The notes under the pieces are model-generated. The model was not told where the DNA came from and did no database searches. It saw only the letters and a list, made by a program, of their open reading frames with translations. Both the position numbers and the translations under genes were made by a program. Shown here in pieces: positions 14,265 through 59,785 of a stretch of DNA of 64,000 nt (the stretch's first letter is position 1; each line of letters starts with the position of its first letter). This DNA comes from Candidatus Moanibacter sp. (GTDB taxonomy: Bacteria; Verrucomicrobiota; Verrucomicrobiia; Opitutales; UBA2987), in assembly GCA_965226025.1 (NCBI GenBank), contig CBDDCD010000002.1, positions 2,662,216 to 2,726,215 of the forward strand, read 5' to 3'.

Positions 14265-14390
14265 TCGAGACAAGGTTCGAGACGAGGTTTTCTCCGCTGA
14301 CATCGAAGCTGGCAACTGGTAGCGGAGTATCCTGAACGAGTTAGAAACGAATTTCGGAACACCCTGGTAACCTTGTCTCGAACCTTGTCT
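14265..14390. repeat. Family-A hairpin repeat (12-nt-unit arms)
   Basis: TCGAGACAAGGTTCGAGACGAGGTT (14265-14289) pairs with AACCTTGTCTCGAACCTTGTCT (14369-14390). The loop ends are shared with the copies at 44441 and 44655. Confidence 0.8.
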
Positions 14391-19029: not shown

Positions 19030-19093
19030 CGAAATGCTCACGCATTCCGCTACCTCCCATTCGGTGCTCGTAGCGGAATGCTTGAGCATTTCG
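19030..19093. repeat. Family-D hairpin repeat
   Basis: CGAAATGCTCACGCATTCCGCTA (19030-19052) pairs with TAGCGGAATGCTTGAGCATTTCG (19071-19093). Related copies lie at 39561-39625 and in the ends of the 50825-51403 element. Confidence 0.8.
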
Positions 19094-20303: not shown

Positions 20304-20569
20304 CTTTGTCGCGAGCTTTGGCGCGAGCCTTGTCGATTATTCATCATGAGCTTTAGTCACGAAAACGTTGAGGTTCATCAGCGAGCATTAGCCCTCAATA
20401 CGAGAGTCAGCGTATGGATCGGTGGACTGGGACAGCATGCATTGGATCTCTGCGTCGTCCAGAGCCTACTGCCGAGAGAAGAAGCTCCTATAGAGACTGT
20501 CGGCAATGACATCGGCCATGATCAGGAATACTGTCTCGCCTTCTGAAATCGCCAAGGCTCGCGACAAAG
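20304..20569. repeat. Family-A' hairpin element enclosing a truncated four-helix-bundle gene remnant
   Basis: Arms are CTTTGTCGCGAGCTTTGGCGCGAGCCTTGTCGA (20304-20336) and TCGCCAAGGCTCGCGACAAAG (20549-20569). In the loop, the ATG at 20346 opens MSFSHENVEVHQRALALNTRV, which resembles helix 1 of IVS-protein-family members. Confidence 0.6.
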
Positions 20570-20875
20570 AAGCTTAATCTGGGACATCTTCGGTAAAATC
20601 TGAAATCCCAAACGAATTGCCGCGAAATCGGGTTTACGGTAACATTAATTTCTGTTGGATTCGAACTTGCGCTTAATGGGATTTGGAGTTTTCTTTTTGG
20701 CTCTATCCTTAAATTATCTAACCTCAAAATACCCAACCTGAGCTAACGTGCCCCGAAAACGTTGACTTGATTGCAAGAAAAGGAGCCTACGCTTTTATGG
20801 CTTCGTTCCGTACTCTTACGAATTTCCTAACTGTTAATAAAACCCATTGCGCGATCGACTCAAACGATCGACTTA

Positions 20876-25260: not shown

Positions 25261-25394
25261 GTGGAGAGGCGAGGGCTCTCGAGCCCCCGAAAGCCTTTGT
25301 TCGCCTTCAGAGCGTAATGGCAGCAGATAGACTCGAATCGTTAGGGAGTTCCGGGAGGTCTCGGATCGGGGCTCGAGAGCCCTCGCCCCTCCAG
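25261..25394. repeat. Family-B GC-rich palindrome pair (REPIN-like)
   Basis: GTGGAGAGGCGAGGGCTCTCGAGCCCC ... 80 nt ... GGGGCTCGAGAGCCCTCGCCCCTCCAG. Confidence 0.85.
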
Positions 25395-28509: not shown

Positions 28510-28656
28510 GTGGAGGGGCGAGGGCTCTCGAGCCCTGATTTCATCGTTATTCATCGAAGGAGCCTTTCTTAGTACGGAGAGTGAACTCGATCTTGTCAAC
28601 CACGTGGTTTTGCCGAGTGTCCAAGCCTCTGGGCTCGAGAGCCCTCGCCCCTCCAG
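28510..28656. repeat. Family-B GC-rich palindrome pair
   Basis: GTGGAGGGGCGAGGGCTCTCGAGCCC ... 95 nt ... GGGCTCGAGAGCCCTCGCCCCTCCAG. It lies 29 nt from the 3' end of the RAYT pseudogene. Confidence 0.85.
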
Positions 28657-28684: not shown

Positions 28685-29174
28685 TCAATCGTGCCAATCC
28701 AGCGTCCCAATTTCCCCCTTGTAAGGCCATTTATTTACCGCCTCAACCAAGCCATGTCTAACCGGATTGTTCCTAACATAGTTCCACTTATCCGTATAAG
28801 ACTCACCCGAGCGCAGTTGCCGGTCCCAGTAGTCTCTTTGCCACAATTGTTTGTTTTTCGGCCTGTGCCAGCGGCGGGACACCTGACTGCGCCAGAAACT
28901 GACCCATGACCTCATGGAACGTACCGGCAAAGTCCCGGGAGCGCAGAACAGATGGATGTGGTCGGGCATAATTACAAATCGACCAACGACCCAGCCATGA
29001 CTCTCCCGCCATGCCTGTGTGATCTGTTCCATTGCTTCGTGGGAGGCTAGGATGGGTTGTCGATCTTTTGCGCAGAACGGTTAGATATACGATGTTTGAG
29101 CGATTGTGGGATTCGACGACTGGCCAATGAGGGGGCCGTTTTCTTCTCGGTGGGGTAACGGGATCGTCGGACAT
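28685..29174 (-). pseudogene. RAYT/IS200-like HUH transposase gene with a frameshift
   Basis: Frame 1 reads MSDDPVTPPRRKRPPHWPVVESHNRSNIVYLTV. A second frame continues CAKDRQPILASHEAMEQITQAW..IMPDHIHLFCAP..YVRNNPVRHGLV. The frames switch near 29073-29085. Confidence 0.7.
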
Positions 29175-29252
29175 CTGTAATGAAGAGTTACGAATGTTCG
29201 AGGTCGGTGCAATCTGCGATCGCGAATAGGGATTAGGAAATCGTGGCCGGCG

Positions 29253-29389
29253 CTGGAGGGTCGAGGGCTCTCGAGCCCCAAAGGTCGTAGTTTTCCCTTA
29301 ATGATTTTCCTTGGTGGTCGGCCATTGGAATCCGATCTCCGTTTTTGGTACAATCGACTGAGGGGGCTCGAGGGCCCTCGCCCCTCCAG
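29253..29389. repeat. Family-B GC-rich palindrome pair
   Basis: CTGGAGGGTCGAGGGCTCTCGAGCCCC ... 83 nt ... GGGGGCTCGAGGGCCCTCGCCCCTCCAG. It lies about 80 nt upstream of the RAYT pseudogene start. Confidence 0.85.
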
Positions 29390-29423
29390 CAGAAGGCGGC
29401 TCCAGAATGCAGCAACTCTCTAC

Positions 29424-32447: not shown

Positions 32448-32590
32448 CTGGAGCAGGGGCGAGGGCTCTCGAGCCCCCGATTCACCGTCGTTTTCGGTCT
32501 CCTGATATCGCTTTGCTAGGATGATCCGCTGGCAAAGCGGGAGCGGAGACGTTGGTCTTATACCGCACAGGGCTCGAGGGCCCTCGCCCC
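32448..32590. repeat. Family-B GC-rich palindrome pair, followed by a T6 run
   Basis: CTGGAGCAGGGGCGAGGGCTCTCGAGCCCC ... 92 nt ... GGGCTCGAGGGCCCTCGCCCC, then TTTTTT. Confidence 0.85.
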
Positions 32591-32729
32591 TTTTTTAAGG
32601 TCGTTTCCATATCGATTGCCGAAAATCTATGGCCCAGGAACTCGCATGGGCACTGAAGTTTAGGTAGACATCGATAATGCGCTGGCCAGTCGGATGGGAG
32701 TGTGAGATTCTGTCCTTCGTCCCCTTAAG

Positions 32730-35700
32730 ATGAATTCGACCAACCTTCAGGCATTTCCCCGAACAAGGTTGATCAGGATGGGGACCTTCCTTCGTCCGGT
32801 CCTCCAGTTCCTCGTCGCGTTCGCCGGACTGTTGGTTTTTCTCGGCATTTGGGCGCTCGGTTTTAAACCTGAAGTGCGAGACGAGCAGCTCGTCGTGGAT
32901 GCGAAAGAGGCAGCTGAAGCGGATAGAATGAGGGGTGCGCGAATCGATCCCGAAAATCCCGTTGTAATCTGGCGGGAGGCGGATTATTCGCAAGGAGAGA
33001 GCGGCTCCTGGTGGCCCAAGGGCGAATCGCCCGTTCTGACCGACCTAGTCTCCGAAGGAGTATTGCCCCCGGTGGAGGAGCGTGTCGGCCCTGAGCCGGT
33101 GGTCCTCGAGGGTCCTGATGGGATAGGCCGCTATGGGGGCGCCCTGATCAAAGTGGAGACGGCAACGTCCGGGGAAGCGGTGCACATGTCGGGCTCTTAC
33201 AGCGGTTGTTCGTTGGTGCGCTGGTCTCCCTACGGGTATCCCATCGTCCCTCATTTTGCCAAGAGTTGGGAAATCCGTGATGAGTTTCGCGAGTACACCT
33301 TTCACCTCCGAAGAGGCGTCCGCTGGTCCGATGGGCACCCTCTCACCACCGAGGACATTATGTACTACTGGGACCACGAGGCCAATGAGCCTGCCATCAG
33401 TCAGCGTCCCACTCATATATTCTGGCATATGGGGAAACTACCCGCTTTCACCCCTATCGATGAATATACCCTCCGGATCCGTTTTGAAGATCCGTATCGC
33501 GACTTTCTCGACCGTCTGGCTACGTCGCACGGGCAGCACTTGCTTCGCTCACCTGCTCATTACCTAAAGAGATACCATCCGGTCAGCGGCGACCCCGGAT
33601 TCATTGCCGAGGAGATGGCAAGATCCGGGATGCCCAGCCCGCAAATGCTCTACTCCTATGTCAGGCGCTGGAACAACACGAATCACCCACGACTCTGGCC
33701 CTGGGTCTTCCGCACCTACAAGCCCAATCCACCGTATATATTTGTCCGCAATCCCTATTATTTCGCGGTCGATCCCCAGGGCAATCAGTTACCCTACATT
33801 GACCGCTACGTCATGGAGGAGCGCCAAGGCGACATGGCGGAGGTCGCCGCGATCAATGGCGAACTGAGTTTCCACGCCGGTTTCGTTTTCAGTCAATACA
33901 GTCTGGCGATGGCCCAGCGGGAGACGGGAGATTACGAAGTGTATCACTGGGCGAGACTGAACGGAACGGAATTTCTGGTTTTTCCAAACCAGAATCTCAA
34001 GCCTCTCTCCGACGATCCCGAAGTCATCAAGAAACGGGAGCTGATCCAGAACAAGACCTTTCGCCAGGCCCTCTCCCTGGCCATGGATCGGGAGTTTATC
34101 AGCACCGTGGAATACAGCGGTCTGCTCCAGCCGGCGCAATTGGCGCCCGCTCCTGAGTCCAATTTCTATCACGAAGGACTCATGAATTCGCACATCGAGC
34201 ATGATCCTGTTCGTTCCGGTGAACTGCTTGACAGCATTGGTCTGGTCGGTCGCGACGAAGAAGGATTCCGCACCTTTTCCGACGGTTCTCGGTTGCTGAT
34301 ATACTTCGATTTTCTCTCGTATAACAAGCGGGATCTGGCGCAGGTGGTAGCTGCACAATGGAAGGAGGTAGGCTTGCGCGTGATCGCACGCTACCGGGCC
34401 CCGCGCATCTGGTATACGGCCCTCGATGCCCTCGAGCTCGAACTCTCGGCTGGGGGCATGAGCGGAAAAATCAATCTCTTTGTAGAGTCTAAGAACTACA
34501 TTGCGACGAAAGAGGCTCACTGGGCTCGCGGCTACGGAAACTGGTATTCCCAAGGTTCACTGTTCGACAATCCCCATGCCACTGGTAGAGGGGCGATCGA
34601 GCCGCCTGAAGGCTCCATCTATCGCAAAATGATGCATCTGCACAGCCAGGCGGCCAGCGCGCCGAGCCTGGAGAAACAAAAGGCGATCATGCGCGAGGCC
34701 CTCGATATCAGCGCGGAGCATCTCTGGGTGATCAGTACCGGTTTCGCTCCGCCAATTTTGGTCATCGTGAAAAACGGCCTCAAGAACGTGCCCCGCGTGG
34801 GCGTCTTGAATCACGATTTCCAGGCCCCGTCCAGCGCCGGCATCGAGACTTTTCATTGGGAGAAGGTCACCCACGACCCCCAAGTAGGGGAGAATATCAA
34901 ATCCGCTCTTAGAAAGATTACTCCCAAGCCGGGTTCCGCCCAGGATGAAAGCGGGGCCGGCGGGGACAGTCTGCTGGCAAGGTTTATCCGACTCTCCCTG
35001 TGGACGATCGCCGGGTTGGGGTTACTCCTGTTCGCTATAAGGCATCCCTTTGTTGGCCGGAGGCTGATCATCATGGTGCCGACTCTGGCAGTGGTTTCCA
35101 TGTGTGCATTCACTATCATCGAATTACCTCCGGGGGATTTCCTCACTTCTTACATGGCCCTTCTGGAGCTTGGAGGAGACGAAGTAGACCAGGAACAGAT
35201 TGAGGATCTGCGGTCCATGTTCGAGTTGGATAAGCCGGTGGTCTTTCGTTACTTGAAATGGGCAGGGCTGATCTGGTTCACCACCTTCAAGGAGGAGGAC
35301 CGCGGATTGCTCCAAGGAGACATGGGTCTGGCCATGGAGTCTCAGAACCCCGTCAACGACATTGTGGGTGATCGGCTCATTCTCACCCTTAGCATCAGTC
35401 TGTTCGCGGTTCTTTTTACCTGGTCAGTGGCACTGCCGATCGGCGTGTATTCCGCAGTCAGGCAGTACTCACCAGGCGACTACTTTGCCACCTTCATCGG
35501 TTTCGTCGGCATGTCCGTGCCCAACTTCCTCCTCGCCCTTATCCTCATGTACTTCAGCAATCGCTATTTTGGAATTCCCATCACGGGACTATTTTCGGCC
35601 GAGTTCGTGGCCCAGCCCTACTGGGATGGGGCCAAGGTAGGTGATTTGCTCAAGCACATCTGGGTGCCGGTCGTAGTTGTCGGTTTCCAAGGAACGGCGG

Positions 35701-36077
35701 CGATGATCCGTATCATGCGGGGTAACCTGCTCGACGAGTTGAACAAGCCCTATGTCACCACCGCCCGTGCCAAAGGGGTGCGACCCGTTAAGCTCCTCTT
35801 CAAGTATCCGGTCCGCCTGGCCCTTAATCCTTTCGTCTCCGGGCTGGGAACCCTCTTCCCCCAGTTAGTCTCCGGTGGTGCCATTGTCGCCCTCATCCTC
35901 AGCCTGCCCACGGTCGGGCCCTTGCTACTGAAAGCGCTACAGATGGAAGACATGTACCTGGCCGGGTCCATGCTCATGCTCCTGAGCCTGCTGGGGATTG
36001 TCGGCACCTTGGTCAGCGATCTGCTCCTGCTTCTCCTTGATCCTCGCATCCGGATGGAGGCGGCGGGTTCGCGCTAG
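32730..36077 (+). CDS. Fused ABC-importer subunit: membrane-anchored family-5 (DppA/OppA/YejA-type) substrate-binding domain + DppB/YejB-type permease
   Basis: 1115 aa. An N-terminal TM segment precedes the SBP motif FAKSWEIRDEFREYTFHLRRGVRWSDGHPLTTEDI. The permease part starts at RRLIIMVPTLAVVSMCAFTIIELPPGDFL, with an EAA-type region ..YVTTARAKGVRPVKLLFKYPVRLALNP. Confidence 0.85.
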   Translation: MNSTNLQAFPRTRLIRMGTFLRPVLQFLVAFAGLLVFLGIWALGFKPEVRDEQLVVDAKEAAEADRMRGARIDPENPVVIWREADYSQGESGSWWPKGESPVLTDLVSEGVLPPVEERVGPEPVVLEGPDGIGRYGGALIKVETATSGEAVHMSGSYSGCSLVRWSPYGYPIVPHFAKSWEIRDEFREYTFHLRRGVRWSDGHPLTTEDIMYYWDHEANEPAISQRPTHIFWHMGKLPAFTPIDEYTLRIRFEDPYRDFLDRLATSHGQHLLRSPAHYLKRYHPVSGDPGFIAEEMARSGMPSPQMLYSYVRRWNNTNHPRLWPWVFRTYKPNPPYIFVRNPYYFAVDPQGNQLPYIDRYVMEERQGDMAEVAAINGELSFHAGFVFSQYSLAMAQRETGDYEVYHWARLNGTEFLVFPNQNLKPLSDDPEVIKKRELIQNKTFRQALSLAMDREFISTVEYSGLLQPAQLAPAPESNFYHEGLMNSHIEHDPVRSGELLDSIGLVGRDEEGFRTFSDGSRLLIYFDFLSYNKRDLAQVVAAQWKEVGLRVIARYRAPRIWYTALDALELELSAGGMSGKINLFVESKNYIATKEAHWARGYGNWYSQGSLFDNPHATGRGAIEPPEGSIYRKMMHLHSQAASAPSLEKQKAIMREALDISAEHLWVISTGFAPPILVIVKNGLKNVPRVGVLNHDFQAPSSAGIETFHWEKVTHDPQVGENIKSALRKITPKPGSAQDESGAGGDSLLARFIRLSLWTIAGLGLLLFAIRHPFVGRRLIIMVPTLAVVSMCAFTIIELPPGDFLTSYMALLELGGDEVDQEQIEDLRSMFELDKPVVFRYLKWAGLIWFTTFKEEDRGLLQGDMGLAMESQNPVNDIVGDRLILTLSISLFAVLFTWSVALPIGVYSAVRQYSPGDYFATFIGFVGMSVPNFLLALILMYFSNRYFGIPITGLFSAEFVAQPYWDGAKVGDLLKHIWVPVVVVGFQGTAAMIRIMRGNLLDELNKPYVTTARAKGVRPVKLLFKYPVRLALNPFVSGLGTLFPQLVSGGAIVALILSLPTVGPLLLKALQMEDMYLAGSMLMLLSLLGIVGTLVSDLLLLLLDPRIRMEAAGSR

Positions 36078-36106
36078 CGCCGCAGCGCGGCGCTAGCGCG
36101 AACCCG
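36064..36106 (+). promoter_or_regulatory. GC-rich hairpin containing the stop codon of the fused SBP-permease gene
   Basis: CGGGTTCGCGCTAGCGCC (36064-36081) pairs with GGCGCTAGCGCGAACCCG (36089-36106), giving 18 bp. The TAG stop at 36075-36077 is in the stem. The structure is conserved at 43148-43188. Confidence 0.6.
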
Positions 36107-36191
36107 AGTTTCGAGTTCCGGGTTGCGAGTTGCGCGGCCTTTTCTGTCTAACTCCTAAGTAAAGATACAATTCAAAAGGACTTACTTACTC

Positions 36192-36551
36192 ATGGCACAG
36201 GATAGCCTGGAGAATTTTGGAGCATACCGGAAGGCGAACGAACTCTTCGATCTCGCCGTAGAAGATATGAGACGCTTGGAGCAAATTCCGATGTGTCGGC
36301 GTTTGATTTCTCAACAGATCGCAAGTGCCGACTCCATCCCCGCTAACATCGAGGAAGGCTATGGCCGAGAGTCAACGAAGGAGGACCGCCACTACCTTGT
36401 AATCTCGCGAGGTTCAGCTCGAGAGACCAGAGGACGCTATCGCCGAATGAAACATTGGCTCGAGTCCTCCCTAATCGAAGATAGAGTCAACCGGTGTGAT
36501 GAGATCATCGGTATCTTGACGAAGGTTATCAATCGGATGAAGGATCAATGA
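36192..36551 (+). CDS. Four-helix-bundle protein (23S rRNA intervening-sequence protein family)
   Basis: 119 aa. ..FGAYRKANELFDLAVE.., ..QIASADSIPANIEEGYGRES.. and ..ISRGSARETRG.. match the family pattern as I recall it. Confidence 0.75.
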   Translation: MAQDSLENFGAYRKANELFDLAVEDMRRLEQIPMCRRLISQQIASADSIPANIEEGYGRESTKEDRHYLVISRGSARETRGRYRRMKHWLESSLIEDRVNRCDEIIGILTKVINRMKDQ

Positions 36552-36608
36552 TGGTCTGTAGTTTGATTCCTAATGGAGGTATTACGTCGATTCTGAGAGA
36601 ATCACCAA

Positions 36609-37796
36609 ATGGACAGTCCCAACGGTAACGCGCCAGCCGCAACTCGAGACACGCAACTCGAAACGCGCAACTCGAAACTCTGGGAAAGCGATCAAGGATC
36701 GCTTTCCCAGTGGCAGCTCATCCGCCTGCGCTTCACGAAGCACAAGGCGGCAGTGGTTTCGCTATACCTTATTTTGGTCCTCTATTTCGTTGCCCTATTC
36801 GCGGAGTTTTTTGCACCGTATTCGAGGGACTGGAATGACACGGATGCAATCTATCACCCTCCTCAGGTGCCTGGTGTGAACCTCGAGCACGGGATTCACG
36901 TGCCCAAATTGCGCCTCCAATTGCACCCGGTCACACTGAGCAAGTATTACATTCGCGAAGAAGCGGACCCAGTGCCGCTCGGATTCTTTGTCATAGGTGA
37001 GCCCTACAAGCTGTGGGGCCTGGTTCCGATGCAGAGGCATTTTTTCGGAGTCGATCTGGAGGAGTACGGCGCCACCCACGAGAACGACGGTTCGGCTCCG
37101 GTCTTCATGTTCCTCGGGGGAGACCGCTACGGAAGGGATATTCTCAGCCGGCTTATTTCCGGCGCCCGCATCAGTCTCTCGATTGGGCTGGTGGCCATCG
37201 CCATCACTTTTGTATTCGGCATCATCATGGGCGGGGTGTCCGGTTACTTTGGAGGCAAAACGGACATCCTGATCCAGCGCCTTATTGAGATCATGAACTC
37301 GTTCCCCCACATTCCGCTGTGGTTGGCGATTGGCGCCATCCTCCCTTCGGAATGGTCACCCCTTAGGATCTATTTTTCCATCACCCTCGTCCTCAGTTTC
37401 CTCAACTGGACCGGTCTGGCCCGCGTCGTGCGCGGCAAGATTCTATCACTTCGGGAGGAAGATTATGTGACTGCCGCGCGCCTCATTGGGGCTGATCATA
37501 CGCGCATCCTTTTCCGGCACCTGGTCCCAGGATTTACTAGCCATATTATCGTTGTTCTGACCTTGAGCATACCAGCGATGATTTTGGGCGAAACCGCCCT
37601 CAGTTTTCTTGGATTGGGATTGCGCCCTCCGGTGGTCAGCTGGGGAGTGATGATGCAGGATTGCCTCAACCTTCAGGTGCTCAACAACTACCCTTGGCTC
37701 CTCATGCCGGTTATAATGACCGTCGTAACGGTGCTCAGCTTTAACTTCCTGGGCGATGGTCTGCGTGATGCAGCGGATCCGTATTCGGCGAATTAG
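36609..37796 (+). CDS. ABC transporter permease (DppC/OppC/YejE-type)
   Basis: FLGGDRYGRDILSRLISGARISLSIGL plus a BPD-transporter core. The first ~25 codons overlap the 3' arm of the hairpin element, so the start is uncertain. Confidence 0.85.
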   Translation: MDSPNGNAPAATRDTQLETRNSKLWESDQGSLSQWQLIRLRFTKHKAAVVSLYLILVLYFVALFAEFFAPYSRDWNDTDAIYHPPQVPGVNLEHGIHVPKLRLQLHPVTLSKYYIREEADPVPLGFFVIGEPYKLWGLVPMQRHFFGVDLEEYGATHENDGSAPVFMFLGGDRYGRDILSRLISGARISLSIGLVAIAITFVFGIIMGGVSGYFGGKTDILIQRLIEIMNSFPHIPLWLAIGAILPSEWSPLRIYFSITLVLSFLNWTGLARVVRGKILSLREEDYVTAARLIGADHTRILFRHLVPGFTSHIIVVLTLSIPAMILGETALSFLGLGLRPPVVSWGVMMQDCLNLQVLNNYPWLLMPVIMTVVTVLSFNFLGDGLRDAADPYSAN

Positions 37797-39560: not shown

Positions 39561-39625
39561 CGAAATGCTCACGTATTCCGCTACAGTCTGCGACACGGTC
39601 CGTAGCGGAATGCGTGAGCATTTCG
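39561..39625. repeat. Family-D hairpin repeat
   Basis: CGAAATGCTCACGTATTCCGCTAC (39561-39584) pairs with GTAGCGGAATGCGTGAGCATTTCG (39602-39625). Confidence 0.85.
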
Positions 39626-42800: not shown

Positions 42801-43160
42801 CGTGCTAACCTTCTCGATGAAATGAAAAAAGCCTATGTCATGACGGCCCGCGCCAAGGGAGTTCGTCCCTTCAAGCTGATATTGAAATATCCCGTGCGAC
42901 TCGCCCTCAATCCCTTTGTCTCCGGCCTCGGAACGCTTTTCCCACAGCTGATCTCGGGGGGTACGATCGTCGCTCTGGTGCTCAGCCTTCCCACGGTGGG
43001 GCCGTTGTTGCTGGAGGGGCTCCTGCGGGAGGATATGTTTCTTGCTGGTTCGATGCTCCTCATCCTCAGTTTGATGTCCGTGGTGGGCACGCTGGTGAGT
43101 GACCTGTTGCTCCTAGTTCTCGATCCCAGGATTCGGATGGAGGAGGCCGGTTCGCGCTAG
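39816..43160 (+). CDS. Fused ABC-importer subunit (paralogue of 32730..36077): family-5 SBP domain + DppB/YejB-type permease
   Basis: 1114 aa. HIAKAIEASDENRQFVIHMRKGMRWSDGHPYTADDI and RRLALMVPTLLAVSVLIFVVIELPPGDLL. It is colinear with the first copy along its whole length. Confidence 0.85.
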   Translation: MFGLTNSRTLKSALEAGLVLLAFFSSWVLLAALFSLGGHEANLSSRDRSIVEGEQPVAEQDTDAYAPVIWQEVDYSLGSIVDWYPKNESPILAELVARGQLPPVYERVGEEPVVLEGVDGIGRYGGTWYTANTSFRRITGMLEDVMCGPNLVRWSPMGYPLVPHIAKAIEASDENRQFVIHMRKGMRWSDGHPYTADDILYFAEREAYEPEVGAPPAQNLLLYRGGKATVEKLDDYTVRVRFEAPNGVFMERLATWRGLPWCNTPAHYLTQFHPVDGDPEVIEAAMKAYSMPSRRALYMFLKDPQNTEHPRLWPWIFRGYKANPPLSFVRNPYYFAVDTKGNQLPYIDRLFFDQKQKDLIGVAAAHGEFSFQSANIGFGQFTLLMSDRDLGNYEVRQWQPTNGGDFAICFNLNHRVEDSKPVSPLKREYLNNKIFRRALSLAINREAIIHSLYAGITRPSQSAPPPDSPFFEPSLNNAYIAYDPDESKRLLDEIGLNNRDVDGLRTFPDGSAMHFFLDSADHHAFPRGLPEFIAEDWAEVGVRVTSRQRAQRLYTLTSYSSLGDMILRGGPIDFLPLINPELYVPVLTSAFAPTYGKWMARGGLYGSPEALLPGAEEPPEGHPVRRAMELYDRALQASGLPEQVEVFRGVLQIAAENLWSINVSTPAPVIGVVSRDMHNVPRRMRFSWEFLSPSNAGVETFFFGHPADSAGAIKQMQQEILEPTPIYGREGDRPAEAEGAGIDSGRIIAVAIKYLLIAILFGFLFMICLRHPFVVRRLALMVPTLLAVSVLIFVVIELPPGDLLDTYIAEVEESGRATGERELEDIKKMFLLDQPSSYRYLHWLGLRWFLTFDENDRGLLQGNLGRSMYNFSSVNDLVGDRLILTLCIGVSTVLFTWLTALPIGIYSAVKQYSAGDYLASLIVFFGMSMPNFLLALLLMYAGTKFLGVQVTGLFSAEFAGQPEWSPAKVRDLLQHLWLPVLVVGIGGTGQMIRIMRANLLDEMKKAYVMTARAKGVRPFKLILKYPVRLALNPFVSGLGTLFPQLISGGTIVALVLSLPTVGPLLLEGLLREDMFLAGSMLLILSLMSVVGTLVSDLLLLVLDPRIRMEEAGSR

Positions 43161-43188
43161 CGCCCCGCAGCGGCGCTAGCGTGAACCG
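43148..43188 (+). promoter_or_regulatory. GC-rich hairpin containing the stop codon (paralogous to 36064-36106)
   Basis: CGGTTCGCGCTAGCGCC pairs with GGCGCTAGCGTGAACCG. The TAG stop at 43158-43160 is in the stem. Confidence 0.6.
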
Positions 43189-43214
43189 AAGTATCGAGTT
43201 TCGAGTTTCGTGTC

Positions 43215-44402
43215 ATGTTCTTCGAAATTGGTAAAAAAAATACAATCTTGAACGCTAACCCGTCACTCGAAAGCCGTGACTTGGAACTCGCAACTCCCGC
43301 CCGCGAAGCGGCCGGGCAGTGGCGGCTTATCGGAATGCGGTTTCGACGTCACCGATTGGCGGTATGGTTTCTCTATATCCTAACGGCCCTTTACGTTCTG
43401 GCGGCCGTTGCGGAAATTGTCTCCCCCTATTCCAAATCTCGAAAAAACGTTCAGTACTCATACGCTCCGCCGCAGATCCCCGGGTTCAGTTTTGGCGACG
43501 GTTTCTATGTCTACGACCAGGTACAGAAGACGGATGAGGTGACCCTTGCACGATACTACGAGGTAAACCGTGAAGTTCGCATACCACTCGGATTTCTAGT
43601 AAAGGGAGAACCCTACCGAATTTGGGGCATATTTGGGGCCCAGCGTCGACTCTTTGGCGTTAAGCAGGAGTCGTTCGGGAGAAAATATCCGGAAAGGGAA
43701 ACTCCCGATTTTCACTTTTTTGGCGCCGATCAATTTGGGCGCGACATTCTCAGCCGTATCATTTTCGGATCACGCATCAGCCTCTCGATCGGACTTCTCT
43801 CTATATTCTTCACTTTCGTCCTCGGGGTCTCAATCGGAGGAGTCTCCGGCTACTTCGGAGGCAAAGTTGATATCTTGATTCAGAGGCTCATTGAAGTCCT
43901 CAATTCGTTTCCTCATCTGCCCCTGTGGTTGGCCCTTGGCGCCATTCTGCCGGCCGAGTGGAGTTCCCTCAAGGTCTATTTCTGCATCACTCTCATAGTC
44001 AGCCTTCTCAACTGGACCGGACTGGCACGCATTGTCCGGGGAAAGATCTTATCGCTGCGCGAGGAGGACTATGCGATCGCGGCACGCCTTCTTGGAGCGA
44101 ACGATGTTCGCATTCTTTTCCGGCATCTGATTCCAGGATTTACCAGCCACATCATCGTTGCTCTTACTCTGAGCGTACCGGTCATGATTCTGGCCGAGAC
44201 CTCGCTCAGTTTTCTCGGACTGGGTCTGCGTCCTCCCGTTGTCAGTTGGGGGGTGATGCTGCAAGACTGCCTCGATCTTCAGGTCGTGGCCAATTACCCG
44301 TGGCTTCTGATTCCGATCTACTTCGTCGTCGTGGCGGTTCTCGCCTTCAACTTTGTCGGCGACGGGCTGCGGGATGCTTCGGATCCATACTCCGCACGCT
44401 AA
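43215..44402 (+). CDS. ABC transporter permease (DppC/OppC/YejE-type), paralogue of 36609..37796
   Basis: FFGADQFGRDILSRIIFGSRISLSIGL. Colinear with the first copy. Confidence 0.85.
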   Translation: MFFEIGKKNTILNANPSLESRDLELATPAREAAGQWRLIGMRFRRHRLAVWFLYILTALYVLAAVAEIVSPYSKSRKNVQYSYAPPQIPGFSFGDGFYVYDQVQKTDEVTLARYYEVNREVRIPLGFLVKGEPYRIWGIFGAQRRLFGVKQESFGRKYPERETPDFHFFGADQFGRDILSRIIFGSRISLSIGLLSIFFTFVLGVSIGGVSGYFGGKVDILIQRLIEVLNSFPHLPLWLALGAILPAEWSSLKVYFCITLIVSLLNWTGLARIVRGKILSLREEDYAIAARLLGANDVRILFRHLIPGFTSHIIVALTLSVPVMILAETSLSFLGLGLRPPVVSWGVMLQDCLDLQVVANYPWLLIPIYFVVVAVLAFNFVGDGLRDASDPYSAR

Positions 44403-44440: not shown

Positions 44441-44566
44441 GTTCGGGACAAGGTTCGAGACGAGGTTTGCTTCGCTGATTCCGAACAGGTAGGTCGAATT
44501 AGGTCCGGTGCCCAGAGGGCGAAAGGAACTCCGATTACCCTGGAAACCTCGTCTCGAACCTTGTCC
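44441..44566. repeat. Family-A hairpin repeat
   Basis: GTTCGGGACAAGGTTCGAGACGAGGTTT ... AAACCTCGTCTCGAACCTTGTCC. Confidence 0.85.
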
Positions 44567-44654: not shown

Positions 44655-44804
44655 TCGAGGACAAGGTTCGAGATAAGGTTCGGGACGAGGTTTGCTCCGC
44701 TGAATCCGAACAGTTAGGTTGCAGGAAGTGCTTTGCCCGGAGGGCGAAAGGAACTCCGACCACCCTGGAAACCTTATCCCGAACCTCGCTCCCGAACCTT
44801 GTCC
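44655..44804. repeat. Family-A hairpin repeat
   Basis: TCGAGGACAAGGTTCGAGATAAGGTTCGGGACGAGGTTT ... AAACCTTATCCCGAACCTCGCTCCCGAACCTTGTCC. The loop is homologous to that of 44441-44566. Confidence 0.85.
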
Positions 44805-44861: not shown

Positions 44862-46507
44862 CTACCAATACCTCGGAACTTCCTCCTCGACCTTGGTCAT
44901 CATCTCGAGGACCGCGGGCCTCCCGGCCCTATTGGCTTCGAGACCTCGGCGAAGGGCCGCCCCTATTTGGTCAGGTGCCTCAACCCTTTCGGCGTAGGCG
45001 CCAAGTCCCTCCCCGACTTTGGTGTAGTGGCCTCCTAGCTTGTTGCTGCCCCAGTGCTCGCTGGCAAAGGGCATATGTTGGTCGTAATGAGTCATCACTC
45101 CGTTGTTGAGGACCACCGTCAGGATAGGAATCTCCGATCTGACCGCAGTTTCCACGTCCATGCCCGCCATGCCAAAGGCAGCATCACCCATAATATTGAT
45201 AACCTGCTTATCAGGATCCGCCAGCTTTGCTCCCATGGCCAGCCCCAGGCCGTAACCTAGCTGGGTCGACTTCCCCCATCCGATATATCCTCTAGGCTTC
45301 TGTGATTCCCAGAAAGGGACGAGCTGGTCCCGGGGATATCCGGAATCGTGCGTGATGATGGTGTTGGCTACATTGACCGCTCTGGCCAGTTCCGTGAATA
45401 CCCGGTAGGGGCTAATCGGTACTTCATCCGAGTTGAGCCTGGGACTCCACTCTTTCATGAACTCCGCTTTGATTTTGATTATCTCGTCGGCGACACCATG
45501 GACGTCCTCCCGCCCCTGTTCACCCAATTCTCGCTTGATCTCATCGATAACCTGTCTCAGCACAATGCGGGCATCGCCTATTGCTCCGTAGCTGATCCGA
45601 TGATCCTTGTTAACGTCATCGGAACAGTTCGTGATCTGCGCCAGGGGGATCTCCACAGGCATAGGTGCGTTGAAAGTAGTGATCGTGAAGCTGGTTCCAA
45701 TCCCAAGGACGAAATCGGTTTTTTTGAGGAAATGGTCGACCATCAACGTGCCGGTGTGACTGCCGGTGCCCAGCGCCAGTCGGTGATTCTCCGGGAATGC
45801 GCTCTTGCCCGCCAGCGTCGTCATGACGGGGACTTGGATGAGTTCGGCCAGTTCCAGCAACTCATCCGTAGCCTCTGCCCAGAGGACCCCCTGTCCCACA
45901 TTGACTACCGGACAGGAAGCCTTGAGGAGCGCGCCCACTAGTTCTTGCACATCGTCCGGATCTGCTCCCGATCGGTAGGGTCTAACCGGCTCGTAATGAA
46001 AAGCTTCCTCCGTGAATTCCTCCGTCCCTACATCACGGGGAATCTCTATCAGGACGGGACCGGGCCGCCCATGTTTGAGTTGACTGAAAGCCCTCCGCAT
46101 CAGCTCGGGAATGCGGTCTACCAGGTTGATCTCGGCCGACCACTTGGTCACTCCCCCGTAATTCCGAACCGCCTCAAAATTAGGATGTACTTGGGTGCGA
46201 TTTCGCGGTTGTCCACCGGGAAGCAGCAGGATGGGAATGGAATCAGCATAGGCCTGCGCCACCCCTCCGAAGGCGTTCTCCGCCCCGGGTCCTGTTTGCA
46301 TGATAAAAAGCCGATGTTCCTGCCGTTCCGGACCCGGCTGAACCCGTCCGCCATGTTCACGCCGGTGCGCTCGGTGCGGCTCAATATTGGCCTGATTCCC
46401 TCACGGGCCGCCTCGTCAATCAGCGGCTGGGCCGGAAATGCCCCCACCCATTCGACCCCTTCCGCCTTGAGAATCTTAGCTATAACCTGGTCCCCGTTCA
46501 TCGCCAT
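44862..46507 (-). pseudogene. Thiamine-diphosphate-dependent enzyme (acetolactate-synthase/sulfoacetaldehyde-acetyltransferase-like), split by a 1-nt frameshift in a homopolymer
   Basis: The N-terminal ORF 46148..46507 (..GVNMADGFSRVRNGRNIGF) and ORF 44862..46301 (MQTGPGAENAFGGVAQAYADSIPILLLPG .. IMGDAAFGMAGMDVETAVR) join if the A5 run at 46305-46309 is A6. Confidence 0.75.
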
Positions 46508-46765
46508 CTCCTCCTTCGACGGATGCTAAGTCTACTTTCAACGAAAAGTCGACCTTCGCTTTCCGTTGTTTTCTCAATCCGTTGGGCATGCCTCTCCTCC
46601 CCATTCGTTGCTCATAATCTCTTCAATTAGCGTAGATTTGCGTGATTCGTAATTGGTTTCCTAACACGGGTTGGTTGCGGCTTCGCTGCTCTAGATGACA
46701 TTTATGGTTCTTCCGGGTTTGGTGTGGGATTCCGTCCGCCATGGCCGGTGTCGCAGCTCTCTAAT

Positions 46766-47042
46766 CTTTGTCGTGAGCTTTGTCGCCATTCTTGGTTTCG
46801 ATCCCACGAGAAAGCTTTCGATCCCGCTCAGCGGGTCTTACGACCAAGTTTGCGAGGAGGCTCTTTATCCCGTGAGGGAAACTTCGTCGTAAGCTTGGTC
46901 GCGAGCTTAGTCGACTTCTCTCTCTCTCTCTCTCTCTCTCTCTATGTCAGAGATGAGGTTCTATCTGCCGGCACAAGATACACATGGTGGAAAGTAGAAT
47001 CGACCAAGTTTAAGCCAAAGCTCGCGACAAAGAGGCTCTCGC
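46766..47042. repeat. Two tandem family-A' hairpin elements
   Basis: First element: CTTTGTCGTGAGCTTTGTCGCC (46766) pairs with CTTACGACCAAGTTTGCGAGGAGGCTC (46837). Second element: TCGTCGTAAGCTTGGTCGCGAGCTTAGTCGAC (46884) pairs with ATCGACCAAGTTTAAGCCAAAGCTCGCGACAAAGAGG (46999). Confidence 0.65.
46917..46943. repeat. (TC)13 dinucleotide microsatellite
   Basis: Uninterrupted TCTC...TCT, 27 nt, inside the loop of the second A' element. Confidence 0.95.
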
Positions 47043-47211
47043 AGAATTCAGGGACGGAAGCTCAATAGAAAATCCCACACAATAGTCCGAGGAACGTTAT
47101 CTGTCACAGTCCAATATCATCTGGCAGATCCATCGGATAGACTGTTTGGTGCCACGTTTCCAAGGTACGAATTGACGCGAATCCTGCAGCTGATATGTTC
47201 GACACCGTATC

Positions 47212-50824: not shown

Positions 50825-51403
50825 CGACGAAATCAACGGCAAGTTCGTCGAAATGCTCACGTCCCGCTGAGCGCATTGGCGTCAACCTAACGAACAGAAT
50901 TCGACGTAAAGATTGAATCGGGTTGTTGTTTCACAGCCGTCTCGTAAGGGCATTTGTTAGAGCACTGAGATCACGTCTTCCCTTTCATTGATGCTTCCTC
51001 GATCAAAGACAATGGAAGCAACAGACCGAACTCTCCGAATCATCGCTCTTCTACTTTCCAAACTCTTCAGCGAAACCTACCCGTCACTGCAACTAAAAAT
51101 GATCCGATCGGATCATTTTTAGTTGCAGTTAGGCTCGGAATTCGGACAAAACTGGTCTGTTTGAGGTCCTGTGGTTGGGCAAAACCTCTGAGGGAATTCG
51201 ACTGAGAAGTGGCAACCACTCAGTCGGATCTCGGCTTCAGACTGCTCCAGTGGTTTTGCGAATCGCTTGGCGTCCACCTAAGGGCGATCGGCGACCAGGG
51301 TCTGAGAGGGCCGATTCTGGGCTATAGTAATTGAAGGAAACAAGGTTGACGCATTAGCGCTCGGCAGGACTACGAGCACCGAATGGGACGTGAGCATTTC
51401 GTC
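50825..51403. repeat. About 580-bp non-coding element bounded by imperfect terminal inverted repeats (family-D related)
   Basis: The left end CGACGAAATCAACGGCAAGTTCGTCGAAATGCTCACGTCCCGCTGAGCGCATTGGCGTCAACC (50825-50887) matches the right end GGTTGACGCATTAGCGCTCGGC..GGGACGTGAGCATTTCGTC (51344-51403). No convincing ORF lies inside. Confidence 0.7.
51087..51128. repeat. Perfect 42-bp palindrome
   Basis: CTGCAACTAAAAATGATCCGA followed directly by its exact reverse complement TCGGATCATTTTTAGTTGCAG. Confidence 0.95.
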
Positions 51404-54578: not shown

Positions 54579-54683
54579 GATGGGAGTCTAGAGTGCGAAT
54601 TGCTAATCTGAATCTTAGATGTCCGTACCGATTATCTTCAGGTCATGAATTCTCGAGAAATTGAGCGCAAAACGAATTCAGGA

Positions 54684-54826
54684 CTGGAGGGGCGAGGGCT
54701 CTCGAGCCCTTGGGCGAACTTTGCTGTTCGGTACCGATCTCTCTTTTGCGTAATGTCATTCGGGCGCACCAAGGACGCTTCTTTCTGGGTGTCTACGGCA
54801 TGGGGCTCGAGGGCCCTCGCCCCTCC
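54684..54826. repeat. Family-B GC-rich palindrome pair
   Basis: CTGGAGGGGCGAGGGCTCTCGAGCCC ... 92 nt ... GGGGCTCGAGGGCCCTCGCCCCTCCC. Confidence 0.85.
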
Positions 54827-54864
54827 CAACCTGGCGGTTGATCGGCCACCCTTAATCCCTGCGA

Positions 54865-59553: not shown

Positions 59554-59619
59554 AGAAGTCAGAGGAACCGCCTTGGGAGAACCGCCTAGAACCCAAACCA
59601 GGAGTAGTCGCAACCGAAT

Positions 59620-59765
59620 AGACAAGGTTCGAGACGAGGTTCGAGACAAGGTTCGAGACAAGGTTACTACGTTAGACAGAGCCACCTACCAAGTTCGATC
59701 AGATTCGTCCTTAGAAAAGGCCACATCAGTACTCACCGGAGGAAACCTCGTCTCGAACCTTGTCT
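59620..59765. repeat. Family-A hairpin repeat inside the aco operon
   Basis: The left arm is about 3.5 copies of the 12-nt unit GAGACAAGGTTC (59620-59665). The right arm is AAACCTCGTCTCGAACCTTGTCT (to 59765). Confidence 0.85.
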
Positions 59766-59785
59766 ACACCATTCGGAACTGAACC

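Follow-up and report, generated by a model that had tools for sequence, protein, structure and literature searches.

A hairpin-bounded four-helix-bundle gene cassette, possibly of intervening-sequence type, within an ABC transporter operon of Candidatus Moanibacter

The 64,000-nt stretch of Candidatus Moanibacter sp. considered herein (assembly GCA_965226025.1, contig CBDDCD010000002.1, positions 2,662,216 to 2,726,215 of the forward strand), which is termed the window throughout, contains a cassette with a small gene for a four-helix-bundle (4HB) protein, wedged between two co-directional genes of an ATP-binding cassette (ABC) transporter operon. The cassette is bordered by inverted arms composed of short tandem units, and such arms are a property of 4HB genes generally, not of the focal operon. 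The reading in which we place about even confidence is that of a promoter-less, hairpin-bounded gene cassette, built like the intervening sequences (IVSs) of ribosomal RNA (rRNA) and housed in a protein-coding operon, with arms that are proposed to pair in the messenger RNA (mRNA). An initial annotation of the same DNA had described the 4HB gene as sitting in the loop of a stem of the operon, a picture that has to be turned around, since the arms travel with the gene and not with the operon.

The cassette begins directly behind a fused gene for a substrate-binding protein (SBP) and a permease and reaches into the following gene, oppC (Table 1). The final codons of the 1115-aa fusion gene constitute the 5' half of a perfect hairpin, termed H1, the 3' half of which is an inverted copy of this host coding sequence; H1 adjoins the left arm, and homologues of it are present at a paralogous junction in the window and at the compared loci L001, L002 and L090. 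A further perfect hairpin, H3, is located inside oppC, where its 3' half codes for S-L-S-Q-W, the conserved residues that open the OppC_N domain, and its 5' half is an inverted copy of the 3' half, with homologues in L090 and L001. The paired portions of the two arms (36103-36134 with 36652-36683) comprise 32 nt, are 88% complementary and are separated by 517 nt, giving an element of 581 nt with a 32-nt stem, and alternative pairing registers exist because the arms are made of tandem 7/14-nt units. The right arm is translated as residues ~10-25 of OppC, and the oppC start codon, lying within the stem loop, and the first ~25 codons are cassette sequence. The long-range arms, the intact 119-aa gene and the permease ATG enclosed by them, and the 14-bp hairpin that follows had all been described in the initial annotation and were recovered here, with H1 as an addition.

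Table 1. Features of the focal junction, of its paralogue and of other hairpin families in the window (ORF, open reading frame; REPIN, hairpin-forming pair of repetitive extragenic palindromic (REP) sequences; RAYT, REP-associated tyrosine transposase).
Feature	Position	Strand	Remarks
Upstream host gene, SBP_bac_5 + ABC permease fusion	32730-36077	+	1115 aa; Pfam, ORF list
H1, perfect 20-bp hairpin	36064-36106	+	3-nt loop; over TAG stop 36075-36077
Left (5') arm	36103-36137	+	four GAGTTNC-type heptamers, G/T-rich
Leader of 4HB gene	36138-36191	+	54 nt, A/T-rich; AAGGA ~12 nt 5' of ATG
4HB protein gene	36192-36551	+	119 aa; PF05635 / TIGR02436
Cassette trailer	36552-36637	+	86 nt; holds oppC ATG 36609
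Right (3') arm	36638-36683	+	three 14-nt units CGCAACTCGA(A/G)AC(G/A) (CGCAACTCGAAAC type), C/A-rich
H3, perfect 14-bp hairpin	36680-36710	+	3-nt loop; inside oppC
Downstream host gene oppC	36609-37796	+	OppC_N + BPD_transp_1
Paralogue H1'	43146-43190	+	17-bp core; over TAG 43158-43160
Paralogue gene-less arms	43194-43298	+	left 43194-43217, right 43262-43298; ~50-nt loop; ATG 43215
GGAGGGGCGAGGGCTCTCGAGCCC REPIN-like family, 5 copies	25262-25393, 28511-28655, 29252-29390, 32455-32591, 54679-54833		
RAYT-like ORF	28685-29032	-	NF047646 E 4e-22, 78.6 bits against cut-off 80; N-terminal ~38 aa missing
Second hairpin family	14268-14390, 44446-44566, 44655-44795, 59619-59766		arms of tandem 12-nt units AGACAAGGTTCG/AGACGAGGTTCG
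Third hairpin family	20304-20575, 46768-47037		units TTTGTCGCGAGC

Both the minimum-free-energy (MFE) fold and the centroid fold of 36055-36720 pair the arms, with z = -7.5 against 20 dinucleotide shuffles, a value to which H1 and H3 also contribute. The local inverted-repeat score of the focal arms amounts to 22, as compared with ~9 for shuffled flanks and a maximum of 13.5 over 258 same-geometry controls taken at other loci, and the complementarity noticed in the initial annotation is thus better than chance in a formal fold. Sequences of the type CGCAACTCGAAAC, allowing at most 2 mismatches, occur 11 times in the window versus 1.75 expected, 8 of the 11 standing at the two operon junctions, and GAGTTNC arms are restricted to these two ABC junctions within the 64 kb. 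The region was assembled identically, bar 2 single-nucleotide polymorphisms, by four independent public runs, and the junction is therefore not an assembly artefact.

Scanning the cassette for promoters and terminators gave nothing above chance; the single weak terminator-like site, at 36120-36140, compares with 0.8 expected by chance, and H1 and H3 carry no T-run. An intrinsic terminator or attenuator was rejected as a candidate, as the GC-rich hairpin followed by a U-tract that would mark one was not found, and an Rfam scan of the whole window returned no known RNA family, rRNA included. It was also observed that both ABC operons have no adjacent ATPase gene. Separately, 93-100% of the words sampled from 35500-37500 recurred in 11 public runs under six organism labels, with smaller shares elsewhere, and the source bacterium is therefore a widespread associate or contaminant of samples.

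The generality of the arms was revealed by comparison with other 4HB genes. A homologue search of a 5.8-billion-protein collection yielded as closest homologues L001-L003, whose 4HB proteins are 73-77% identical to the focal one and occupy the same junction between SBP-permease and OppC genes amid different outer neighbours; heptamer arms are present in all three, with the units GGGTTGCG/CGCAACCC in L003. A wider set of relatives comprised 80 loci from one-genome-per-species contigs, mostly of Verrucomicrobiota, among which the closest named relative is a metagenome-assembled genome of Candidatus Moanabacter and 76 of which were usable. The best inverted repeat between the 250 nt upstream and the 250 nt downstream of each 4HB gene exceeded z = 4 against shuffles at 64 of these 76 loci, and 61 surpassed the highest value (13.5) of the 258 same-geometry controls set at other positions of these loci. 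Without exception the arms are arrays of tandem 6-8-nt units, the 5' arm being G/purine-rich and the 3' arm C-rich, with units such as GTGAAA/GTGAGA, GGGAGTGA/GGGAATGA, GAGGGGC/GAGGGAC, CGAGTGT/CGGGTGT and GAGTTGC; arms have a median length of 29.5 nt and loops one of 427 nt.

A more distant set was obtained with the XCC0516 sequence and consists of eight plasmid-borne 4HB genes from cyanobacteria and Gemmatimonadota, ~25-30% identical to the focal one, seven of which have equivalent arms (units GGGTGTA, GGTGACA, GGAGATAA, GGAGGGCA and GGGAAAA). The initial annotation would have been refuted had other 4HB genes lacked flanking inverted arms, and this did not happen, tandem-unit arms prevailing in both the related and the distant set. 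The distant genes reside in a cas6 / cas4 gap, in a cas10 / cmr3 gap, 3' of an integrase gene and in a conjugation operon; on the cyanobacterial plasmids L167, L169 and L172, cassettes are seen in the arrangements cas6/4HB/cas4-cas1 (type I-D) and cas10/4HB/cmr3 (type III-B). This placement in CRISPR-cas operons may explain earlier 'CRISPR-associated' reports of the 4HB family. An incomplete literature search, which leaves absence unproven, found no publication describing inverted tandem-unit arms at 4HB genes outside rRNA, and IVS-type cassettes in mRNA operons are provisionally regarded as apparently undescribed before.

The cassettes are fitted closely into their surroundings. Co-directional neighbours stand upstream at 65 of 75 loci and downstream at 48 of 73, orientation being taken from crude ORF calls in which some minus-strand calls are visibly spurious. 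By median, the left arm begins 5 nt behind the host stop and ends 18.5 nt ahead of the 4HB ATG, and the right arm begins 29 nt behind the 4HB stop and ends 4 nt ahead of the host start. Hairpins of at least 9 bp over the stop codon, adjoining the left arm in the manner of H1, were found at 7 of 62 cassettes and 5 of 427 controls; being enriched and yet far from universal, they are not a defining part of the cassette. Stop-spanning hairpins formed by host coding sequence and its inverted copy were noted in several independent cassettes, namely L026, L061, L067 and L075 (GTCGTCATTTCGAAATGACGAC type) as well as in L016, L041 and L051.

The hosts are housekeeping operons unrelated to one another (Opp ABC, HlyD/AcrB, DegP, RmlB/RmlA, holB/SRAP and TPR/DnaG among them), whereas a neighbour-joining tree of the 4HB proteins sorts by arm type, every arm-type clade spanning several host loci; two arm types coexist in Opitutaceae. 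Since the arm type tracks the 4HB clade across host loci, the arms and the gene have been dispersed as a unit. The closest cassette pairs share homologous flanks, and no pair more than 90% identical with unrelated flanks was seen, from which it follows that the dispersal is old and that inheritance is now mainly vertical. Between orthologous cassettes the arms change in concert, as in L067, both arms of which have switched from GTGAAA to GAGTGCG units. For five orthologous mini-cassettes, RNAalifold reported five compensatory pairs from an unreliable alignment; because the repeat register causes this unreliability, the per-locus inverted-repeat statistics were relied upon in its place.

Few families of small bacterial proteins without a known function are as abundant as the 4HB/'S23p' family. 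The focal protein matches PF05635 (E 2e-14, 54 bits against a cut-off of 33.8) and TIGR02436 (E 1.6e-17, 63.7 bits against a cut-off of 24), and by tblastn its gene is single-copy in the window. The AlphaFold model, a monomer built on a 44-sequence alignment, shows four long helices at a pLDDT (predicted local distance difference test) of 94.8, for which Foldseek returns XCC0516 (2gsc; template-modelling (TM) score 0.82-0.85) and BT_0352, of the 'S23 ribosomal protein family' (2rld; ~0.8), and the profile match to 2gsc reaches E 2.7e-10. The family assignment made in the initial annotation, namely to the 4HB proteins of 23S rRNA IVSs, is corroborated by these profiles and by the XCC0516/BT_0352-type fold. 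Its comparison with Avd of diversity-generating retroelements (DGRs) holds as far as the shared four-helix bundle and the Pfam clan relation are concerned, but the resemblance is weaker (8ub7/4dwl; TM 0.6-0.68) and the focal protein is far closer to the stand-alone XCC0516 and BT_0352. With 20 invariant columns across 44 sequences and dN/dS (ratio of nonsynonymous to synonymous rates) of 0.04-0.22 in pairs with measurable dS, the near-identical L029/L031 giving 0.44 at dS 0.025, the protein is functional and under purifying selection. By homology to pentameric XCC0516 and Avd, it is probably a nucleic-acid-binding pentamer, 2gsc being a homopentamer (cited in PMC4990558). No member of the focal 4HB subfamily was found on viral contigs.

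The history of the focal junction can be followed in five operon copies (focal, paralogue and L001-L003), which are roughly equidistant, with OppC 55-64% and SBP 46-56% identical, while the four 4HB proteins of the junction (focal and L001-L003) are 62-82% identical. Judged from this and from synteny in at least three other contigs, the focal cassette is ancient and vertically inherited at the OppC junction. In the window, L001 and L002 the oppC ATG stands just 5' of the right arm, so that the arm supplies OppC with a variable N-terminal tail, and in L003 the ATG stands 3' of the arm; the start codon and the N-terminal tail of the focal oppC were recruited from the cassette.

At the paralogous junction, the arms enclose the ATG of the oppC paralogue without a 4HB gene, just as the initial annotation had it, their paired portions being 43196-43217 and 43272-43296, and the fold reaches z = -4.1. 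Alignment with the focal junction extends over H1 and the left arm, is interrupted by a gap of ~480 nt missing here and resumes ~17 nt ahead of the right arm; the junction is best read as the relic of a cassette that has no gene. The weak similarity once claimed between the paralogue loop and the focal 4HB leader amounts to short A/T-rich matches and is not significant. None of the 80 loci retrieved in a metagenome scan with OppC carries a 4HB gene. Among operon relatives, the metagenome locus L090 has H1, ATACGGG/CCCGTAT heptamer arms and H3 without a 4HB gene, and L089 and L096 have a 14-nt junction with no arms. The closest orthologue, L086 (OppC 85% identical, the same 492-aa gene downstream), has an armless 155-nt spacer that resembles neither the cassette nor the paralogue beyond the level of shuffles, and it can therefore be called neither an empty nor a decayed site.

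As to expression, exact-match contigs from three metatranscriptomes, which are short and of low depth, cover 36434-36648, reaching from the 3' part of the 4HB gene to beyond the oppC ATG, and 4HB and oppC are therefore co-transcribed. In the proposed mechanism, the cassette would be transcribed by read-through from the host operon, and its arms would pair in the transcript, typically over ~30 bp, looping out the cassette. Such pairing would bring the host stop and start within ~10 nt of each other and thereby limit polarity on the host operon, and it would mask the purine-rich 5' arm together with the leader, which would throttle 4HB translation. The arm duplex would have the length of those cut by RNase III in rRNA IVSs, and the focal H1 and H3 could cap the 3' and 5' ends left by cleavage.

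The rRNA IVSs are inserted in helix 9, 25 or 45 of 23S rRNA. Those bearing an ORF, in Coxiella and Leptospira, resemble the present cassettes in possessing a 4HB/S23p ORF within ~28-bp terminal inverted repeats that form one long stem, in an overall size of ~430-760 nt and in transcription inside a host RNA; their sporadic distribution, which suggests past mobility (PMC4990558), is a further likeness. The IVS of Coxiella burnetii measures 428-444 nt and has a 28-bp terminal stem cut by RNase III at its middle and an S23p ORF that is reportedly decaying and not expressed (PMC4990558). The enclosing stem of the focal cassette likewise comes to at least about 20 bp, as in an IVS, whereas its location is not in a 23S rRNA helix: the host is a polycistronic mRNA, and there is no rRNA in the window. 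Moreover, the cassette arms are tandem heptamers, the protein is under purifying selection in contrast with the decaying Coxiella ORF, and the host gene oppC has grown into the cassette. The proposal of an IVS-like cassette in mRNA, put forward in the initial annotation, thus stands with regard to anatomy, which matches the Coxiella build, while the arm mismatches disfavour a stem that acts purely as sense RNA.

These mismatches belong to several points that weigh against an IVS-like cassette with pairing arms. Among the 64 cassette loci analysed (L002, L003, L006-L085 and the window), which are not phylogenetically independent, the non-Watson-Crick arm positions are A·C in 72 cases against G·U in 34, and constructs of the arms only fold better in antisense at 45 of 63 loci (p 7e-6); the bias is opposite to that expected from selection on a sense-RNA stem and also to known deamination biases. 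The processing of the arms, and even their pairing in vivo, is inferred. Because the oppC ATG lies inside the loop, efficient cleavage of the stem would part oppC from its start codon, and ribosomes moving along the two genes would tend to leave a stem of 517-nt range unpaired. Finally, 15 of the 76 relatives have no significant arms, most of them in one HlyD/4HB/AcrB subclade. In this subclade (L029, L031, L032, L043, L053, L058 and L072), stop and start codons overlap (ATGA) and the arms are weak or absent; its 4HB genes look like domesticated operon members, and the arms are therefore dispensable once the gene is domesticated.

According to the main rival explanation, which is possible though somewhat improbable, the arms terminate a DNA cassette that is, or once was, mobile and any RNA stem is a by-product. 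They would act as hairpins or cruciforms of single-stranded DNA (ssDNA) or as terminal repeats in insertion and excision, their complementarity being kept by template-switch (quasipalindrome) correction. The joint dispersal of arms and gene to many unrelated loci suits this explanation, as does a mismatch spectrum that has no wobble signature of sense RNA and favours the antisense strand; H1 and H3, inverted duplications of the host flanks adjoining the arms, could have been left by fold-back synthesis when the cassette inserted, and the same genome holds DNA-mobilised hairpins in its REPIN-like repeats with a RAYT. However, neither transposase nor integrase nor reverse transcriptase (RT) is found in or beside the cassettes, and the arm sequences differ so widely between cassette clades that no single recognition sequence emerges. 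At the focal locus no target-site duplication is evident, no formal search having been made. Near-identical cassettes with unrelated flanks were not found, the closest pairs being orthologous; co-orientation with the upstream gene and codon-tight spacing point to constraints at the transcript level; and arms without a gene, in the paralogue and in L090, long remain complementary. As regards the hallmarks of transposons with terminal inverted repeats and of miniature inverted-repeat transposable elements, the arms are common within a cassette clade and differ between clades, no transposase is nearby and no alignable pair of filled and empty sites was obtained.

A bolder view, offered tentatively and considered improbable, holds that 4HB genes are self-contained, minimal mobile cassettes spanning phyla, in which a pentamer of the Avd-like protein would recognise, as RNA or as antisense cDNA/ssDNA, the tandem units of the arms around its own gene. 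Acting with a cellular polymerase or RT, the protein would copy the hairpin-bounded unit or re-insert it into transcribed operon spacers and into rRNA, where such units are the known IVSs. If true, this would explain the co-divergence of arm type and protein clade, the strong conservation of the protein in every host context, and the compatibility of arm mismatches with wobble pairing on the antisense and not on the sense strand.

It is quite unlikely that stem, H1 and H3 represent a native coupling or attenuation structure of the operon in whose loop a 4HB gene has landed. The structure does enclose the oppC start, and the paralogue and L090 possess H1, arms and H3 with no 4HB gene; on the other hand, equivalent arms accompany the gene across phyla and in dozens of operons that are unrelated, the arm type follows the 4HB clade, armless junctions exist in the same operon family (14 nt in L089/L096, the 155-nt spacer in L086), and the paralogue junction is homologous to the cassette at its two ends. 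An operon-intrinsic regulator is thereby largely refuted.

The window also contains three families of ORF-less hairpins, with conserved arms and with loops that are not alignable except for part of the second family. The GGAGGGGCGAGGGCTCTCGAGCCC hairpins have arms of 26-31 nt and loops of 78-93 nt that do not align between copies, and two of them (28511-28655 and 29252-29390) flank the RAYT-like ORF; a second ORF, 28803-29174, overlaps the latter in another frame. Together they evidently constitute the known REPIN/RAYT arrangement and not a 4HB system. In the second family the loops, of 75-102 nt, are partly conserved among some copies, and in the third they are non-homologous (208-230 nt), the second copy containing a (CT)14 microsatellite at 46918-46944. 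A single system embracing the 4HB cassettes and the hairpin families A and A', as imagined in the initial annotation, was not upheld, given the REPIN-like character of the GGAGGGGCGAGGGCTCTCGAGCCC hairpins and the RAYT (NF047646, E 4e-22) they flank. Nor is the supposed remnant at 20346 a 4HB gene: no 4HB profile matches in any frame of this third-family copy with its non-homologous loop, and the 66-aa ORF there has no Pfam match at E <= 10 and no detectable family. Another arm-enclosed ORF, 46724-47068, was likewise rejected as a 4HB gene.

That the cassette is a cargo-carrying REP/REPIN member mobilised by the RAYT transposase would draw on the RAYT-like ORF on the minus strand and its flanking hairpin repeats and on the frequency of ORF-less hairpin families with tandem-unit arms in the window. 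It is very unlikely all the same. REP/REPIN elements are likewise long intergenic hairpins with conserved arms and less conserved spacers. The genome-wide repetition of the arm together with a Y1 transposase, which characterises such systems, was not found for the GAGTTNC arms within the 64 kb: they occur only at the two ABC junctions and have no sequence in common with the three hairpin families. They surround a conserved gene and co-diverge with its protein, their type following the 4HB clade and not the host genome, and the cassette is vertically inherited at the focal junction. Chance complementarity of low-complexity sequence, the probability of which is negligible, is refuted even though tandem-repeat arms inflate the number of alternative pairings, since the arm score far exceeds that of shuffles and is higher than any of the 258 positional controls and the arms are kept in orthologues of different sequence.

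Other known systems offer partial parallels. Integron cassettes are promoter-less, co-directional ORFs served by host read-through, and their imperfect inverted repeats are conserved in structure more than in sequence; attC lies only 3' of the ORF, is recombined at attI by an integrase and gives rise to arrays. The 4HB cassettes are similarly promoter-less and co-directional with structure-conserved arms, but these arms stand on both sides of the ORF, the cassettes occur singly, dispersed among operon spacers, and no integrase is associated. A relation to DGRs, as entertained in the initial annotation, found no support nearby: no RT or DGR component was present among the larger ORFs within ~±15 kb, template and variable repeats not having been searched for, and the scanned neighbours are ABC transporter, Nramp-like, enolase-superfamily and thiamine pyrophosphate (TPP)-enzyme genes. 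In cyanobacteria, Mazel et al. in 1990 reportedly described short tandemly repeated repetitive (STRR) sequences, said to be intergenic heptanucleotide repeats in Nostocales with no function assigned; by this description they resemble the cyanobacterial 4HB arms, which are heptamer arrays (GGGTGTA, GGTGACA, GGGAAAA), and in the literature no paper was found linking inverted STRR pairs to 4HB genes.

Several further observations were made in the window. Two near-identical 24-bp hairpins, 19030-19093 and 39561-39625 (CGAAATGCTCACG.ATTCCGCTAC), stand upstream of a LacI-family gene (19218) and of the paralogous ABC operon (39816), respectively, and may be a shared operator or terminator. At 51086-51129, in a region without long ORFs, lies a perfect 44-bp palindrome (22 + 22, no loop), nested in a larger inverted pair, 50861-50888 / 51343-51370. 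The TPP-enzyme gene appears split into overlapping ORFs, 44862-46301 and 46148-46507, both on the minus strand, the N-terminal TPP domain lying in a frame of its own; the split could stem from a frameshift or a sequencing error or could mark a pseudogene.

Since the early 1990s, it has been debated where ORF-bearing rRNA IVSs come from. With 4HB genes nearly always wrapped in arms and set co-directionally into operon spacers, from Verrucomicrobiota to the CRISPR-cas operons of cyanobacteria, the rRNA IVS would be one habitat of a general cassette, of which the focal locus is one old, partly domesticated member. For annotation, 4HB cassettes would explain many of the heptamer repeat arrays at gene junctions, and they carry the warning that downstream start codons, such as that of oppC, may be cassette-derived.

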